The notes beneath the pieces are model-generated. The model was not told the origin of the DNA, did not search any database, and saw only the letters and a program-made list of their open reading frames with translations. A DNA stretch of 40,997 nucleotides from a virus: UHGV virus genome UHGV-0123923; one strand, written 5' to 3'. Of the stretch, positions 12,926 through 33,148 are shown piece by piece; the first letter of the stretch is position 1, and each line of letters begins with the position of its first letter. The position numbers and the translations under genes are program-made.

Positions 12926-12954
12926 ACTATAACACCTACAATAGACAAACACAA
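12926..12954 (-). promoter_or_regulatory. candidate promoter of the primase operon (TTGTGT-N17-TATAGT)
   Basis: -10 is the reverse complement of 12926..12931; AATAG(12940..12944) and CTATT(12956..12960) arms flank the -35. Confidence 0.3.
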
Positions 12955-12958
12955 CCTA

Positions 12959-12986
12959 TTGACAAAATAAAATGTAGCTGTAAAAT
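12959..12986 (+). promoter_or_regulatory. candidate rightward promoter (TTGACA-N16-TAAAAT)
   Basis: TTGACA 12959..12964, TAAAAT 12981..12986 preceded by TG; AT-rich surroundings. Confidence 0.4.
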
Positions 12987-13053
12987 CAACGTATCGAATG
13001 GCTTTAGTTAAGAATTACTTAGAAACAATATTCTTAAGTCTCGGGTACTTAAA

Positions 13054-13073
13054 GCCCCGCCATAAAGCGGGGC
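13054..13073. other. conserved GC hairpin element, copy 1 (GCCCCGC-CATAAA-GCGGGGC)
   Basis: 7 bp perfect stem; same stem and flanks recur inverted at 24547..24566. Confidence 0.5.
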
Positions 13074-13317
13074 GCTAAATAGTACTCTTGGTAACGTTAG
13101 TATCTAAGTTTCCTCAAAGTAACAGCAAGTGGCAAGAAAGCCCCCGTCTATTTAAATTTTACCCTCCTTCATAAGCCACTGATAATTAAAAGTTTCTATA
13201 GTTGCCGTAAACGTGGAAGAGAGTACTTCACTTCGCTGGGGTGGGCTAACGCCCACCCACTGCGTTGCGTACTCTTTTAAGAAACGAAAGAATCACAACG
13301 GCAACGTAACTATTCTC

Positions 13318-13346
13318 TTGCACACCCCAACATAATAGGATACTAT
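13318..13346 (+). promoter_or_regulatory. promoter (TTGCAC-N17-TACTAT) with operator motif, for the rightward small-gene block
   Basis: TTGCAC 13318..13323, TACTAT 13341..13346; AATAG(13334..13338)-GATA-CTATT(13343..13347); ~36/39 nt identical to the reverse-strand promoter at 33012..33040. Confidence 0.55.
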
Positions 13347-13572: not shown

Positions 13573-13772
13573 TGGAAGAATTATTTGAAGAACTGAAACA
13601 TCATGATTTCGAGGAAATATATTTCGTAGCTGAACGCTACGAGGTGCATTTATCGGACGGGATTACAATTATTACGATGGATAGCCAGCAAATGCTAAAT
13701 AGCTTACAGGCAATCAAAACGGCATCGAATCGTGATGCTTGTGCCGACGACTCTGAGGGAGGTTGCCGTTAA
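13569..13772 (+). CDS. hypothetical acidic protein (67 aa)
   Basis: ATGA start/stop overlap with the upstream gene. Confidence 0.5.
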   Translation: MMEELFEELKHHDFEEIYFVAERYEVHLSDGITIITMDSQQMLNSLQAIKTASNRDACADDSEGGCR

Positions 13773-13951
13773 TGCGAATCCGTATAACTGACCGCAGGCT
13801 TGTCCGTATAACTGACCGCAGGCTTATAGATTTCGGTATCTCGGTAGGTGATGTTTTTCCGGCGTTCAGCATCAACCATTATGGTTTTATGATTGAGTAC
13901 AAAGGGTCGTTATTGTTCGTGTATCGGGATGAATGTGAGGTTCTGGTATGA
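13772..13951 (+). CDS. hypothetical protein containing an 8-residue tandem peptide repeat
   Basis: ATG behind GAGGGAGG RBS; 24 bp tandem duplication encodes RITDRRLV-RITDRRLI. Confidence 0.45.
   Translation: MRIRITDRRLVRITDRRLIDFGISVGDVFPAFSINHYGFMIEYKGSLLFVYRDECEVLV
13780..13827. repeat. 24 bp tandem direct repeat, 2 copies, 23/24 identical
   Basis: CCGTATAACTGACCGCAGGCTTGT then CCGTATAACTGACCGCAGGCTTAT, read directly. Confidence 0.85.
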
Positions 13952-14611: not shown

Positions 14612-14640
14612 TTGCACACTGGGATAGAATAGGCTACTAT
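14612..14640 (+). promoter_or_regulatory. promoter (TTGCAC-N17-TACTAT) with operator motif
   Basis: TTGCAC 14612..14617, TACTAT 14635..14640; AATAG(14628..14632)-GCTA-CTATT(14637..14641). Confidence 0.55.
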
Positions 14641-22684: not shown

Positions 22685-22705
22685 AGCCCCGAAAGGGGCT
22701 TTCTT
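22685..22705 (+). terminator. hairpin/weak terminator after the portal gene
   Basis: AGCCCC-GAAA-GGGGCT followed by TTCTT. Confidence 0.45.
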
Positions 22706-22710
22706 ATAGT

Positions 22711-23787
22711 ATGCTATTAACTTTAGCGCCACAGGGTTTATCTATGAGCTTACTTACATCACTAATCAGCCACCAGATATGGCTGCAACGCACCGCATCC
22801 GGTGAGGTGAAAGACCTCGCGCCGTTCATTAAGGAGATGCGGGACGAAATCAAACGGCAGGTGCTGCTATTCAGCGACGACGGTCGCAGCACTGCGCGAC
22901 TGAATAAACTGTTACGTGACCTTGAAGAAGCACTGACAGGACTTACTGGTGACTGGCAAACAAAGCTGGCAGAAGACCTCAAGGAACTGGCGGTGTATGA
23001 AGCTGAGTGGAACGTAAAGACCCTGTCCGCCAACGTAGATGCGGAATTTGTTACGCCCACCGCCGAACAGGTGTGGGCCGCTGCTGAGTTTCAGCCATTA
23101 TCATTGAGTGGCAAGCCAGTTGATTTCACTAAACTGATGTCAGGTTGGGGTGAAACGGAAGTAGCACGTCTTGTAACCGGCGTTAAGATGGGCTTTGTAC
23201 AAGGTCAAACAACACGGCAGATTGTTAAGAATGTAGTAGGCGCCGGTGGGCTGGCTGACATCTCTGAGCGTAACGCCGCTACCGTCATCCGCACCGCGCT
23301 GTCTCACGTGTCCAACGAAGCCCGTAACGAGACGTACCGCCAGAACGACGACATCATCGAGAAGTACGAGTGGGTGTCAACGCTTGACAGCCGCACCAGT
23401 ACGATTTGCAGGGTCAGAGACGGGATGACGTGGGAAATTGGTAAGGGGCCGATGCCCCCTGCCCATCCGAACTGCCGGTCGTGCACGGCTCCGGTAATCA
23501 GTTCCGAGTTCGACTTCCTTGATAAAGGCGCAAAACGCGCGGCTAAAGGCGCGGAAGGTGGCACTCAGGTAAGCGTAGACACCACTTACTACGAGTTCCT
23601 TAAACAACAACCGGCGTGGTTTCAGGACCAGGCGCTCGGCCCGGTGCGAGGTAAGATTTTCCGTAACAGCGGTATATCGCCGGAAGAGTTTCGCGTAATA
23701 TCTGTAGATGGTTTCGGGAATCCGCTCACGCTTAAGCAGATGGCGGAACTCGATAAACGTGTTGCTGATTATCTGAAAGGGGAATAA
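22711..23787 (+). CDS. head morphogenesis / minor head protein (Mu F-like, SPP1 gp7-like)
   Basis: 358 aa downstream of the portal; no RBS at the annotated ATG, so start is uncertain. Confidence 0.55.
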   Translation: MLLTLAPQGLSMSLLTSLISHQIWLQRTASGEVKDLAPFIKEMRDEIKRQVLLFSDDGRSTARLNKLLRDLEEALTGLTGDWQTKLAEDLKELAVYEAEWNVKTLSANVDAEFVTPTAEQVWAAAEFQPLSLSGKPVDFTKLMSGWGETEVARLVTGVKMGFVQGQTTRQIVKNVVGAGGLADISERNAATVIRTALSHVSNEARNETYRQNDDIIEKYEWVSTLDSRTSTICRVRDGMTWEIGKGPMPPAHPNCRSCTAPVISSEFDFLDKGAKRAAKGAEGGTQVSVDTTYYEFLKQQPAWFQDQALGPVRGKIFRNSGISPEEFRVISVDGFGNPLTLKQMAELDKRVADYLKGE

Positions 23788-24248
23788 TGATGGGCTTTTT
23801 CAAAGTAACTGACGTACCGTCTCGTCGCGTAGTCCAGTACGCCCGCGTGTCTGGCTCTGGCGAGAACGTGGTGTTTATTGAAGACGAAAGTGTACTCGGA
23901 ACACCAGTGGACGATATGCCGTTTGCGGACAAGACCGGTATTGCGCTGCCAGCGGCAGGTATGCTTTATGAGATTCAGTACCTGGCGGATGCTGGTGATG
24001 TGTATTTCTCCGTACAACCGCAGGACGCTGAACTGGCAGACGGCAGCGCAAATATCGCTGTCGAAGTTAAGGCGGGCAAAGCACCATATGCGCTGACCTG
24101 GTACAAAGACGGGAAGGAAGTGGTAAACGCCCCGGAAGAGGCTCTGTCTCTGACGGTTAACGCAGTTGGTGAATACTTCGTTAAAGTCACTGATGCCGAC
24201 GGTATAGAGGCCGTAAGTAAAGCAGCGAAGGTTACTAAGCCAGAATAA
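23787..24248 (+). CDS. virion-associated protein with probable C-terminal Ig-like domain
   Basis: 153 aa; AAAGGGGAA RBS; motifs YALTWYKDGKEV...GEYFVKVTDADG resemble bacterial Ig-like domains. Confidence 0.4.
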   Translation: MMGFFKVTDVPSRRVVQYARVSGSGENVVFIEDESVLGTPVDDMPFADKTGIALPAAGMLYEIQYLADAGDVYFSVQPQDAELADGSANIAVEVKAGKAPYALTWYKDGKEVVNAPEEALSLTVNAVGEYFVKVTDADGIEAVSKAAKVTKPE

Positions 24249-24253
24249 ACTGA

Positions 24254-24275
24254 AGCCCCGAAAGGGGCTTTTTAG
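24254..24275 (+). terminator. intrinsic terminator
   Basis: AGCCCC-GAAA-GGGGCT followed by TTTTTAG. Confidence 0.7.
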
Positions 24276-24323
24276 TGCCTGTGATTATTCCAGTTATTCC
24301 ACTCAATTGTAAATGTTGGAATA

Positions 24324-24366
24324 AACTATTCGAATAGTTGACTTTTCACCAAAAATGTGCTAAGCT
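24324..24366 (+). promoter_or_regulatory. promoter (TTGACT-N17-TAAGCT) preceded by a perfect 16 bp palindrome AACTATTCGAATAGTT
   Basis: palindrome 24324..24339 overlaps the -35 (24338..24343); -10 at 24361..24366 preceded by TG. Confidence 0.45.
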
Positions 24367-24546
24367 CCACCTGAGCTTGTGAAGTATGAACAAGCGACCG
24401 CGGCGCGGGCAGGTAACGGAGCGGGACGTAAGTCCTGAGTGTAGTTACGCTGACGCGTTCGGAAGGGCCATACTCTATTGCTTGTGTAAAAAGTAACTTG
24501 TTTACTGAGATTACGCCGTTTCTATGTTTAAATGATAAGGACTAGC

Positions 24547-24566
24547 GCCCCGCTTTAAGGCGGGGC
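24547..24566. other. conserved GC hairpin element, copy 2 (GCCCCGC-TTTAAG-GCGGGGC), terminator-like on the + strand
   Basis: same stem and flanks as 13054..13073 in inverted orientation; followed by TTTACTT; 24 nt upstream of the Rz start. Confidence 0.5.
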
Positions 24567-24590
24567 TTTACTTATCGAGAAAGGGGAAAC

Positions 24591-24977
24591 ATGAATCTTA
24601 AAGCAACTGTCGTAGCGGGAGCATGTTTCATCATCCTGGCTTACGCACACGGCATCTACCAGTATCGCAGCGGCTGGAACGGAGGCCGGGCGAATCTCGT
24701 TTCGCAGCAACAGCAGAAAGCACAGGCTGAGTTAGCTAAGAAAACACAACGGCAGCAGCAGGATGAATCGAAGGCCGCCGCCGCTGATAACGAAGGCAAG
24801 ACGAAATCAGAGGTAATCACCCGTGAAGTCGTTAAGTACATTAAAACGCCTGGCCGCAGCGTGTGCACTTTTGACCCTGAGCGCGTGCAGCTCAAGTCCC
24901 GCGCCGTCGCAAACGCCAATTCCATCCCCGGATACGACGATGATGCAGCCGCCGTGCAAACTGGCACTGCCAAGTAA
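24591..24977 (+). CDS. i-spanin (Rz-like)
   Basis: AAAGGGGAAAC RBS; N-terminal TM segment followed by a Gln/Lys/Ala-rich helical region; overlapped by a lipoprotein gene in another frame. Confidence 0.6.
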   Translation: MNLKATVVAGACFIILAYAHGIYQYRSGWNGGRANLVSQQQQKAQAELAKKTQRQQQDESKAAAADNEGKTKSEVITREVVKYIKTPGRSVCTFDPERVQLKSRAVANANSIPGYDDDAAAVQTGTAK

Positions 24978-25086
24978 CGACGCGGACGAGGATTTAGCTA
25001 TTGACGTCCAGAACGCAGAATGTGTACGGCAACTGAGACTTAAAGTGTTCATGTTGCAGGATTACGTGAGGAATATTCTGGAATAG
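24823..25086 (+). CDS. o-spanin (Rz1-like outer-membrane lipoprotein)
   Basis: GTG start inside Rz in a different frame; lipobox LSAC after a signal-like segment, then a Pro-rich region; extends beyond the Rz stop. Confidence 0.6.
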   Translation: MKSLSTLKRLAAACALLTLSACSSSPAPSQTPIPSPDTTMMQPPCKLALPSNDADEDLAIDVQNAECVRQLRLKVFMLQDYVRNILE

Positions 25087-25165
25087 TTGCCTTGTATGTT
25101 GGAATAATTTATTCTTGACATGTAAATCCGGGTGGCCCGGATTCCAACGTCCAGGGGACATACTG

Positions 25166-25792
25166 ATGAGCGAAGAAGTGAAAGACGAAACTATCGAACA
25201 ACAAGAGACTAAGACCACGTTTACCAAAGAAGAAGTTGACGCGCTGGTATCCGGTCTTAAAGCTAACAACGAGAAGCTCTTGTCTGAAAAGAAAGCTGCT
25301 GCCGCTGCTGCGAAAGAAGCCGCAGATGCGAAGCTGAAAGCCGAACAGGAACGCGCAAAACAGAACGGCGAACTTGAGGCATTCGAGAAAACGTTGCGCA
25401 GTCAGTATGAGCCAGTACTCGCCGAGAAAGACGGTAAGATTAGCAAAATGGCTGAGCGTATCCTCGGCGCAGAACGTAAATCAGTTATCAGCCAGTTGTC
25501 TGGCATGTTGATTGATGAGAGCGCAGCGGATATTATCGCTATGATGGTCAAGACCGAATTTGACGGCGATGACGTTGTGACCAAGTTCACAGGTGCAGAT
25601 GGTAATGTCATCACCACCGACGCAGAGCAATTTAAAAAGTATCTGCGTGAGCACAAAGCATTTTCGCATCTGATTAAAGCAGATGCAGCAACCGGCGGCG
25701 GGGCTTCCGGTAACAAAAATTCTACTGGCGGGGCCGGTGGTGCGGACGTAATCCAGCAAAAACTTAACGCCAAATACGGCAAACGAGGATAA
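25166..25792 (+). CDS. scaffolding protein
   Basis: start moved to ATG (MSEEVKDET) behind AGGGGA; helical, charged, Ala/Lys/Glu-rich; immediately upstream of the major capsid gene. Confidence 0.6.
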   Translation: MSEEVKDETIEQQETKTTFTKEEVDALVSGLKANNEKLLSEKKAAAAAAKEAADAKLKAEQERAKQNGELEAFEKTLRSQYEPVLAEKDGKISKMAERILGAERKSVISQLSGMLIDESAADIIAMMVKTEFDGDDVVTKFTGADGNVITTDAEQFKKYLREHKAFSHLIKADAATGGGASGNKNSTGGAGGADVIQQKLNAKYGKRG

Positions 25793-26767: not shown

Positions 26768-26789
26768 CACGGTTAGTAGTAAAAACAAA

Positions 26790-26810
26790 GGGGCTTCGGC
26801 CCCTTTTTAC
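26790..26810 (+). terminator. intrinsic terminator after the major capsid gene
   Basis: GGGGC-TTCG-GCCCC followed by TTTTTAC. Confidence 0.7.
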
Positions 26811-26824
26811 TAGGAGAAATTAAA

Positions 26825-26992
26825 GTGGAAATTAAATACGTACCAATGCCAATTACCATCGAGCAGAAGCGCGAGTATAACCGTCAGGGGTTCCGTGTGG
26901 TAGATGCTCGTTTCGCACCAGAAGGCACCGTGGTAGAATCGGCTAAAGAAGAGACACCACGCCGCCAGCGCCGGGCGAAATCAGAGGAATAA
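26825..26992 (+). CDS. hypothetical small protein (55 aa), GTG start
   Basis: TAGGAGA RBS 7 nt before GTG; translation VEIKYVPMPITIEQKREYNRQGFRVVDARFAPEGTVVESAKEETPRRQRRAKSEE. Confidence 0.35.
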   Translation: MEIKYVPMPITIEQKREYNRQGFRVVDARFAPEGTVVESAKEETPRRQRRAKSEE

Positions 26993-33011: not shown

Positions 33012-33040
33012 ATAGTACCCTATTATATTGGGGTGCGCAA
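33012..33040 (-). promoter_or_regulatory. promoter (TTGCGC-N17-TACTAT) with operator motif, driving the reverse-strand accessory cassette
   Basis: -35 is the reverse complement of 33035..33040, -10 of 33012..33017; AATAG(33011..33015)-TACC-CTATT(33020..33024); near-identical to promoter 13318..13346. Confidence 0.5.
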
Positions 33041-33148
33041 GTAATGTGATAGAATAATTTTGCGCCTAGTGTCGCACACGAAAAGCGGGTGGTTCCCGTC
33101 TGGCGCATTTATCGTTAACCTGTAACCTCTTAACCAAAGGATTAAAGA

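Follow-up and report, generated by a model that had tools for sequence, protein, structure and literature searches.

The window, meaning the whole stretch of 40,997 nucleotides that was analyzed (UHGV virus genome UHGV-0123923), is an essentially complete Kagunavirus genome (Guernseyvirinae, K1G-like siphophage), and over positions 23700-25300 it shares 99.8% identity with phages fTaEco03 and fKuEco01. Going from the Hoc-like gene to the spanin gene Rz, we found a promoter, a 111-nt RNA core, an AU-rich spacer, a three-tier stem-loop, and the Rz ribosome-binding site, in that order (Table 1). The Rz start given in the first-pass annotation of this DNA was confirmed, and both Rz and Rz1 matched spanin PHROGs. 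The slot between the Hoc terminator and position 24286 is variable in relatives, where it holds either an endonuclease VII gene or small opposite-strand ORFs. In phage templet, a 'tRNA-Ser' is annotated over the Hoc terminator, on the other strand.

Table 1 Features of the window from the Hoc-like gene to Rz1.
Feature	Position	Strand	Details
Hoc-like head decoration gene	23787..24248		phrog_3945; upstream neighbour of the leader
Strong hairpin terminator closing the Hoc-like gene	24253-24270		
Operator-like palindrome GGAATAAACTATTC	24318..24331	+	Just 5′ of the -35
Sigma-70-type promoter	24338..24366	+	-35 TTGACT, 17-nt spacer, extended -10 TGcTAAGCT
Conserved RNA core	24370..24480	+	111 nt; covariance-model match
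P1 hairpin GCUUGU-GAAGUAUGA-ACAAGC	24375..24395	+	6 bp; 1-2 nt from the predicted 5′ end
P2 long interrupted stem	24398..24462	+	Compensatory changes in all three helices
Single-stranded tail AAGGGCCAUACUCUAUUG	24463..24480	+	Conserved
AU-rich spacer	24481..24533	+	Predicted hairpin ~24484-24516; block CUGAGAUUACGCCGU at 24505-24519
P4 three-tier stem-loop	24534..24576	+	Upper tier called by terminator scan
Rz ribosome-binding site AAAGGGG and ATG (24591)	24580..24593	+	4 nt past P4
Rz (spanin)	24591..24977		phrog_2536, E 1e-56; downstream neighbour of the leader
Rz1 (spanin)	24823..25086		Matches to phrog_5672 and phrog_1267

Conservation and distribution of the element

Identity over the 305 nt of 24286-24590 is 95-99% in 179 phage records; over the surrounding 1.6 kb, mostly coding, it is 80-95% in most of these records. 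Among 30 distinct relatives, diversity (pi) was 0.016-0.047 over 24300-24599 compared with ~0.10-0.15 in the Hoc-like and Rz genes, which places this interval three to six times below its flanking genes. One example is Salmonella phage SETP13, whose leader is 96.7% identical to that of the window while its Rz protein is only 66% identical.

A 17-mer taken from the element and scanned in IMG/VR retrieved ~50 loci and exposed paralogous copies, which share the promoter and a ~111-nt core and differ in the central hairpin. The covariance model R1 recognized 57 copies in 64 loci; in the window it scored 137.3 bits (E 3e-38) on the core, the sole copy there, to which a second model, R2, gave 135.2 bits. 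Before Rz, a copy is present in ~450 sequenced Guernseyvirinae. The form found in the window (type A) stands at this position in 181 records, and a divergent form (type J, scored by R1 at 35-40 bits) in 269 records, mostly Salmonella Jerseyviruses. The more distant SenTO17 retains the palindrome, has a promoter that is weak and a leader that has diverged, and lacks a hairpin before Rz; the element was not found in Klebsiella phages 37P2 and 2 LV-2017.

Many Kagunaviruses possess a second copy (types B, C, and D) between a divergent helix-turn-helix gene and the early rightward genes. Behind this early copy come its own strong hairpin and, ahead of the first early gene, a separate promoter that belongs to a different class (TTGCAC-N17-TACTAT); the copy therefore looks like an independent transcription unit. 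The same promoter class also occurs in the window at 13318, 14612, and 33040 (minus strand). No early copy was found in the window or in phiSD1 by covariance-model search with R1 and R2. In the early slot of the window (12927-13172) stands an unrelated module, present in only nine records, whose promoter is TTGACA-16-TAAAAT; at 13173 it joins the 3′ module that type C also has.

No element was found outside the Guernseyvirinae phage group in IMG/VR, GTDB, E. coli genomes, metagenomes, or plasmids. The complete genomes of E. coli had none, GTDB yielded only one misbinned phage contig, the single matching plasmid record is probably a phage genome, and a loose pattern run on IMG/VR gave only chance matches beyond Kagunavirus. 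The metagenomes contributed 34 Kagunavirus-like contigs with the element.

Promoter and structure of the RNA core

The promoter proposed by the first-pass annotation is well supported by its sequence, by its conservation among paralogues, and by the record of phage fBC-Eco01, in which a PHIRE 'host promoter' is annotated at the exact homologous position. Its parts are TTGACT at 24338-43, TG at 24358-59, and TAAGCT at 24361-66. As TAAGCT shares three of six positions with TATAAT, a simple consensus scan missed the site; our call is based on the near-consensus -35, the extended -10 TG, and their strict conservation before every copy of the element. The arrangement of -35, spacer, and TGn-10 is kept in all copies of types A, B, C, and D and, in a weaker form, in type J. 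Given the -10 at 24361-66, transcription most likely starts at ~24373, a position predicted from that of the promoter.

The palindrome just upstream recurs immediately before the -35 of the scaffold-gene promoter (25101-25114), and its motif has eight matches with at most one mismatch, where 0.48 would be expected. It is kept in type J as GGAATACTTTATTC and in SenTO17 as GGAATAAATTATTCC. We infer that it is probably the binding site of a phage regulator, with GGAATAnnnTATTC as the operator sequence putatively targeted by this DNA-binding protein.

The first hairpin of the transcript is P1. Of the 29 distinct copies, 24 had it in their minimum-energy fold, and its pairing was 100% in A2 and A3. 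Type J carries a different 6-bp hairpin at this place (UACGCU-UUC-AGCGUA), so the presence of P1 matters and its sequence does not. The first-pass annotation had instead placed an initial hairpin at ~24362..24378. The inverted repeat that it named, AAGCTC (24362-67) and GAGCTT (24373-78), is real in the DNA but cannot form an RNA hairpin, because its 5′ arm is the -10 hexamer and lies upstream of the start at ~24373. The same annotation described the whole interval as GC-rich; this is true of the 5′ half (~55-58%, like the flanking genes) and not of the 3′ half, with 42-43% G+C.

P2 is built from the segments CCG/CGG, GGCGCG/CGCGUU, CAG/CUG, and GUAAC/GUUAC and an apical GGAC-GUAA-GUCC. Sequence is conserved in its internal loop (GGAG//AGUGUA) and its base (ACCGCGG ... 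UUCGG), and the intervening helices covary. The tail reads as a Shine-Dalgarno-like GGAAGGG, 10 nt, and UUG; together with the adjoining base of P2, it accounts for many of the columns that never vary among types A, B, C, D, and J. In SenTO17, the tail has the diverged form GGAAGGGUCGAGGUCUGUUA.

The two-hairpin shape was predicted independently in 24 of 29 copies folded singly. With the Jerseyvirus form included, 94.2% of the cells were paired, compared with 27-44% in controls slid by one to three columns. Double, compensatory changes occurred in 16 of 29 pairs, and none of 500 shuffles reached the observed covariation, values that come from an alignment fitted to the model and from ~8-10 lineages rather than 28 independent samples. 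Several of the pairs are conserved G-U, which would read C-A on the other strand, so the functional molecule is the + strand RNA. Folding energy alone was unremarkable and not significant (z of -1.9 and -1.7), and the case for structure is carried by the comparative evidence, not by energy. The core is a real structured non-coding RNA on the + strand.

Two further pairings were considered. A pseudoknot between the P1 loop and the tail (AGUAUG/CAUACU) was rejected, being absent from types B, C, D, and J, and a closing helix CCU/AGG proposed by RNAalifold is unlikely because CCU lies upstream of the predicted start. Inspection of the conserved loops by eye gave no convincing match to boxA, nut-like, K-turn, or loop-E motifs.

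The core belongs to no family that we could find in the catalog. The covariance-model search recommended in the first-pass annotation was run with Rfam 15 and matched no family to the core: over the whole window there were no matches at the gathering score, over 24200-24650 at E values up to 10 there were only chance matches to the hairpin, and at loci carrying types J (L188), B (L064), and C (L006) nothing was matched at the element. The absence of a tRNA, noted in the first reading, was borne out by ARAGORN, which predicted no tRNA or tmRNA gene in the window or at five related loci.

Spacer and terminator-like stem-loop

Within the region, diversity is lowest in the spacer (pi 0.016-0.020), whose GCCGU block, with YURAG before it, is found again in types A, J, B, and C. 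The conserved terminator-like hairpin copy reported at 24547..24566 was recovered by a terminator scan; it is actually the top of the longer stem-loop P4. The lower tier of P4 pairs GAUAAG with CUUAUC, the middle tier UAG with UUA, and the upper tier GCCCCGCU with GGCGGGGC, the last forming the terminator-like hairpin of eight pairs, seven of them G-C, with the tail TTTACTTATC. Type J keeps all three tiers with other letters (UAUACG/CGUAUA, UUAA/UUAG, and GCCCGGC/GCCGGGC). Natural variants include GCCCUGC/GCAGGGC and GCCCGAC/GUCGGGC, and one locus (L019) has a perfect 18-bp version.

At 24547-24566 there is thus a G+C-rich hairpin, kept by compensatory changes and followed by a U tract, as in an intrinsic terminator. 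This U tract is interrupted, and it is weaker in type J (UUAGCGUAU). The middle and lower tiers pair it with the upstream A-rich strand, so that in the finished fold of P4 the tail UUUACUUAU is largely paired. The U tail after the hairpin is also short compared with the long U tail of an Hfq-type small RNA. A second copy of the hairpin, with one mismatch, lies at 13051-13073 on the - strand, where none would be expected by chance. A riboswitch-type alternative pairing with the terminator was rejected because the terminator arms change compensatorily without a matching change in the core.

No promoter is evident in the sequence between P4 and Rz. As Rz lacks a promoter of its own, some transcription must read through to it, which makes the RNA a leader at the least.

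Proposed role of the leader and comparison with known systems

The element represents a family, so far uncatalogued, of structured non-coding RNAs that lie close to promoters in Guernseyvirinae phages. Its conserved promoter and hairpin, the compensatory changes, and the lack of a conserved ORF support the first-pass proposal of a structured 5′ leader or a separately terminated small RNA, two forms between which sequence analysis cannot decide.

Our preferred reading, which we hold tentatively, is that of a cis-acting leader governing read-through of its own and of later terminators. Host sigma-70 RNA polymerase would start at ~24373, and the first 90 nt would fold into the 5′-terminal P1 and the long, specifically shaped P2, followed by the conserved tail. 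The transcript would then reach the stem-loop at 24534-24576, the upper part of which, with its tail, may act as a moderate intrinsic terminator. Transcripts stopping at P4 would yield an RNA of ~197 nt, and a fraction of all transcripts probably does end there. Those reading through would be the only evident mRNA for Rz and Rz1. The 5′ domain would act in cis, either on the polymerase that is transcribing it or on a factor which that polymerase recruits, such that complexes from the promoter at 24338 would become termination-resistant at 24566. The same complexes would also resist the strong terminator after the capsid gene (26787-26811), en route to the head and tail genes. Transcripts from the scaffold promoter (25115), which share the upstream palindrome and lack the element, would instead stop after the capsid gene, and in this model scaffold and capsid protein would therefore be over-produced. 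The ratio of these two proteins to the downstream products would be set by the two classes of transcripts. P1 may additionally shield the 5′ end from decay.

Several observations favor such a cis-acting leader. The structure is backed by covariation on the + strand, and the element is always fused to a conserved promoter, which places it at the extreme 5′ end of the transcript. Its paralogous copies head two transcription units, as do putL and putR of phage HK022, and a strong hairpin lies 60-110 nt downstream in every type except the SenTO17 form, in which the missing hairpin implies that the core needs no discrete 3′ end. The dependence of Rz on read-through, the low pi of 24300-24599, and a SETP13 leader far better kept than Rz point the same way. 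So does the layout of the co-directional late cluster, which is punctuated by intrinsic terminators at 22685, 24253, 24547, and 26787. The strongest of these (26787-26811) stands right after the capsid gene, and no promoter is evident before the next gene, at 26826. A search for an antiterminator protein is also in favor: no such PHROG was found among 19 proteins taken from the window, and none is annotated in the fully annotated relatives SCS44 and phiSD1.

Other observations count against a cis-acting leader. It has no similarity to put, and its conservation reaches well past the two hairpins. The early copy looks like an independent unit before another promoter, and it is dispensable, being absent from the window and phiSD1 and replaced here by an unrelated 5′ module. 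Moreover, some further rationale would be needed for a constitutive antiterminator that stands directly in front of its own terminator.

The strongest rival, which we consider possible and somewhat less probable than the cis-acting leader, is a discrete, abundant, trans-acting small RNA of ~197 nt with its own promoter and a 3′ end at 24566-24575. Its 5′ domain would serve as a protein decoy or sponge, and Rz would be expressed by leakage through the terminator. This would fit the unit of promoter, RNA, and hairpin found in all Kagunavirus and Jerseyvirus types, the self-contained early-region unit with another promoter behind it, the swapping of 5′ and 3′ modules between phages, and the dispensability of the early copy. 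It would also fit the strong constraint over the whole 200 nt rather than over the hairpins alone, as well as the conserved internal-loop and junction sequences flanked by covarying helices, which typify protein-binding RNAs. However, better U tracts than those of types A and J would be expected in a dedicated terminator, no hairpin is present in the SenTO17 form, Rz depends on read-through, and the RNA has no Rfam relative. Antisense duplexes with 267 phage translation start regions were no better than those of shuffled sequence. A leader acting on the stability or processing of the message, which we regard as unlikely, would leave the polymerase unaffected: P1 would block 5′-end-dependent decay, P2 and P4 would be sites for RNase III or another nuclease, and the half-life and translation of the spanin message would be set in this way. 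The place of P1, which in the A and J lineages alike begins 1-2 nt from the predicted 5′ end with its sequence free to change, agrees with this, as do the lengths of P2 (~22 bp) and P4 (~17 bp, and 18 perfect pairs in L019), which suffice for double-strand-specific nucleases, and the end of P4 only 4 nt before the Rz ribosome-binding site. A generic stabilizer would nevertheless leave unexplained the near-invariant junction, internal loop, and tail, and the second copy before unrelated early genes that have their own promoter.

Constraint at the level of DNA, with an incidental RNA fold, appears improbable. The region could then be a recombination junction between mosaic modules, a site for a replication or regulatory protein, or the product of recent horizontal spread, and the 95-99% identity of the leader across phages whose flanking genes are 66-90% identical, the variable insertion slot immediately upstream, and the operator-like palindrome would all be accommodated. 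Against it stand the compensatory changes, which keep G-C, A-U, and G-U pairs, many pairs being G-U, which would be C-A mismatches on the other strand and have no meaning in duplex DNA, and the retention of the structure in type J and in paralogues sharing only ~80% sequence identity. Least probable is a small protein, encoded either by a 36-aa ORF (24386..24496) or by a mini-ORF from UUG 24478. The first-pass annotation had seen no plausible ORF before Rz; a 36-codon ORF does exist, and it is annotated as a 'hypothetical protein' in fTaEco03, Sciku, fBC-Eco01, AG11, and Shelanagig, but it is not conserved. Its frame is cut by 1-nt indels to 9 codons (L003, L009, and L030) or 17 codons (L013) in copies of the element that are otherwise intact, from which we conclude that it is not a gene. 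In the paralogous copies it reads as unrelated peptides, no PHROG family was found for it, and there is no clear ribosome-binding site before its ATG at 24386. The check for a missed protein gene therefore revealed none in this frame. The conserved UUG, preceded at 10 nt by the Shine-Dalgarno-like GGAAGGG, is no better as a start: the mini-ORFs that follow it span 1-10 codons with no conserved peptide, and SenTO17 lacks the UUG.

Within the cis-acting reading, a more specific proposal is that the core acts as put does, modifying the polymerase without the help of a protein, but forms a second class of such antiterminator RNA with no structural relation to the first, and that it sorts transcripts in the virulent Guernseyvirinae. 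We put this forward as a speculative possibility, less probable than read-through control by the leader as such. If it is true, the terminator-resistant transcripts bearing the element would reach the spanin and distal head and tail genes, those started at the scaffold and early promoters, being terminator-sensitive, would end early, and the core would stand in for the N or Q proteins that lambdoid phages use. Only one other family of antiterminator RNAs independent of protein would then be known, and the core would offer synthetic biology a compact part. A small RNA that binds protein, if that is what the element encodes, would point to a host factor that these phages must control.

Kagunavirus and Jerseyvirus are among the most often isolated phages of E. 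coli and Salmonella, and many have been proposed for therapy or biocontrol. To our knowledge, they time their genes without a polymerase, a sigma factor, or a known antiterminator of their own. An RNA backed by covariation, better conserved than the adjacent structural genes and present in ~450 genomes, offers a testable handle on this timing. It is often mis-annotated as a 'hypothetical protein'; these spurious CDS annotations should go, and the family deserves an Rfam entry. In the literature on transcription and small RNAs of Kagunavirus, Jerseyvirus, and Guernseyvirinae, we found no description of it. The family is new, as no type has a match in Rfam 15 and as it is unrelated in sequence and shape to put and to the lambda leader. 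Phage leader RNAs close to the promoter and with a terminator further on are, as a general kind, already known from HK022 put and from PR′-6S-tR′ of lambda.

The put RNAs of HK022 make RNA polymerase terminator-resistant through its beta-prime zinc-binding domain. putL and putR are ~70 nt long, form two stem-loops, lie just after the early promoters, and act without phage proteins (PMC9378689). As with put, the element belongs to an enterobacterial phage, its RNA stands just 3′ of a sigma-70 promoter (in every copy, P1 begins 1-2 nt past the predicted start), and it forms two stem-loops side by side. In both systems, two copies related in sequence each stand at the head of a transcription unit, with terminators further on, and no dedicated antiterminator protein is known. 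The differences are equally clear. The two stem-loops total 88 nt (24375-24462) compared with ~70 nt in put, and they are unequal (21 and 65 nt), the core of 90-111 nt having one short and one very long stem. Unlike put, it also has a conserved single-stranded tail and downstream blocks, and an early copy that is dispensable and followed by another promoter. The putL sequence showed no similarity, and R1 had no match in positions 20,000-40,751 of HK022 at E values up to 0.1. The resemblance is one of layout, without homology, and the activity of the element is a prediction by analogy.

In lambda, the late promoter PR′ gives a 194-nt '6S' transcript that ends at tR′ before S-R-Rz, and read-through depends on Q. 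The layout here is similar, with a sigma-70 promoter, a leader of ~195-200 nt, a terminator immediately before lysis genes (here Rz and Rz1), and then head genes: ~197 nt separate the predicted start at 24373 from the hairpin tail at ~24570, and Rz begins at 24591. As in lambda, there is a -10-like GAGCTT (24373-78) in the initial transcribed region, with an exact -10 repeat in type J. However, the lambda leader needs no conserved RNA fold and requires Q and a Q-binding site between -35 and -10, whereas the palindrome here is upstream of the -35 and no Q-like protein was found among 19 proteins taken from the window or in the annotations of SCS44 and phiSD1.

The CI RNA of P4 and the c4 RNAs of P1 and P7 act by antisense pairing with repeated targets in the same leader and carry tRNA-like processing signals. 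Like them, the RNA described here would come from an untranslated operon leader with a constitutive-looking promoter and premature termination within the leader; unlike them, the leader of the window has no such repeats, Rfam match, or tRNA-like fold. Finally, the element recalls the orphan phage motifs of Rfam such as the int-alpA RNA (RF02996), which are short structured intergenic RNAs at the heads of operons with unknown function, although int-alpA itself is unrelated in sequence and fold. A sub-threshold int-alpA match was seen elsewhere in the window, at 33059-33123.

Regulatory signals in and around the leader

The two neighbouring late promoters that carry the palindrome GGAATAnnnTATTC stand one before the spanin gene Rz and one before the scaffold gene (see table), and the palindrome is also retained in Jerseyvirus and in the more distant relative SenTO17. 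A phage regulator probably uses it as its operator. Between the conserved leader and the terminator of the Hoc-like head decoration gene, relatives have a variable insertion slot (window 24249-24285, compared with loci L002, L003, L004 and L007), which is occupied by an endonuclease VII gene or by two small ORFs on the opposite strand; in the window, the slot is empty.

The leader itself, a structured RNA fused to the promoter before Rz, contains a −10-like hexamer near its start, and in the Jerseyvirus form (type J), the corresponding hexamer repeats the −10 exactly (TACGCT). Further downstream, the mini-ORFs that follow a conserved UUG with an SD-like motif are 1–10 codons long. Judged from sequence, these signals could reflect sigma-dependent pausing or leader translation.

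Coordinates of the regulatory and repeat features (window positions unless a locus is named)
Feature	Position	Strand	Remark
Unrelated module, ~190 nt	within 12927-13290		replaces the second RNA copy found in the early-region slot of relatives
Near-consensus promoter TTGACA-16-TAAAAT	12959-12986		precedes the ~190-nt module
Promoter class TTGCAC-N17-TACTAT	13318-13346; 14612-14640; 33012-33040	+; +; -	recurs ahead of early genes
Palindrome GGAATAnnnTATTC	24318-24331; 25101-25114		directly 5' of the -35 of two neighbouring late promoters
-10-like hexamer GAGCTT	24373-24378	+	in the initial transcribed region
SD-like GGAAGGG, 10 nt, conserved UUG	24463-24480	+	
Strong terminator AAAGGGGCUUCGGCCCCUUUUUAC	within 26787-26826	+	directly 3' of the major capsid gene
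(CTCA)n microsatellite	L064 37790-37830		also in L014, L016, L049 and others

Database annotations over and near the RNA

In several GenBank records, the RNA core (24386-24496 and homologous sites) is overlaid by a CDS labelled "hypothetical protein", namely TE3_005, CPT_Sciku_007, fBCEco01_09, AG11_07 and CPT_Shelanagig_007, and in SenTO17, a single 111-aa ORF covers the palindrome, the promoter and the leader. All of these coding calls are probably spurious. A "tRNA-Ser", distinct from the RNA element, is annotated on the minus strand of phage templet (L193 572-649), where it overlaps the final part of the Hoc-like gene together with the terminator, and likewise in wast and ER22. This is probably a false call, as ARAGORN found no tRNA in five related loci. 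The leader was also found, at 98% identity, in two places of plasmid record CP088689.1 (44,086 bp, from an E. coli blood isolate), which is probably a Kagunavirus genome deposited as a plasmid.

The early-region slot

The module occupying the early slot of the window joins, at 13173, a shared 3' module whose last element is a compound hairpin (13219-13276), with UUUUAAG after it. The region 12994-13290 folds well (z −2.9), and the early-slot module is known from nine records only (the K1G, K1H and K1ind group). In relatives, the promoter of the second, TTGCAC class follows the early RNA copy and precedes the first early gene.

In type B early copies, one of the second-copy forms of relatives, the core and the 3' hairpin are separated by a (CTCA)n microsatellite whose length varies, and the complementary (GTGA)n is present in some type C copies. 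A tandem repeat of ~22 nt (13776-13822) lies within the early ORF 13763..13951 and codes for RITDRRLV twice.

Capsid-gene terminator and int-alpA match

No promoter is evident after the capsid-gene terminator and before the next gene, which starts at 26826, so that transcription of the distal head and tail genes depends on read-through.

Immediately 5' of the tail assembly chaperone gene, positions 33059-33123 (+) match the int-alpA RNA (Rfam RF02996) below threshold: the score is 31.8 bits (E 1e-4), and the gathering score is 35.8. The homologous site of phage SCS44 (L064 14168-14232) exceeds this gathering score with 36.6 bits.
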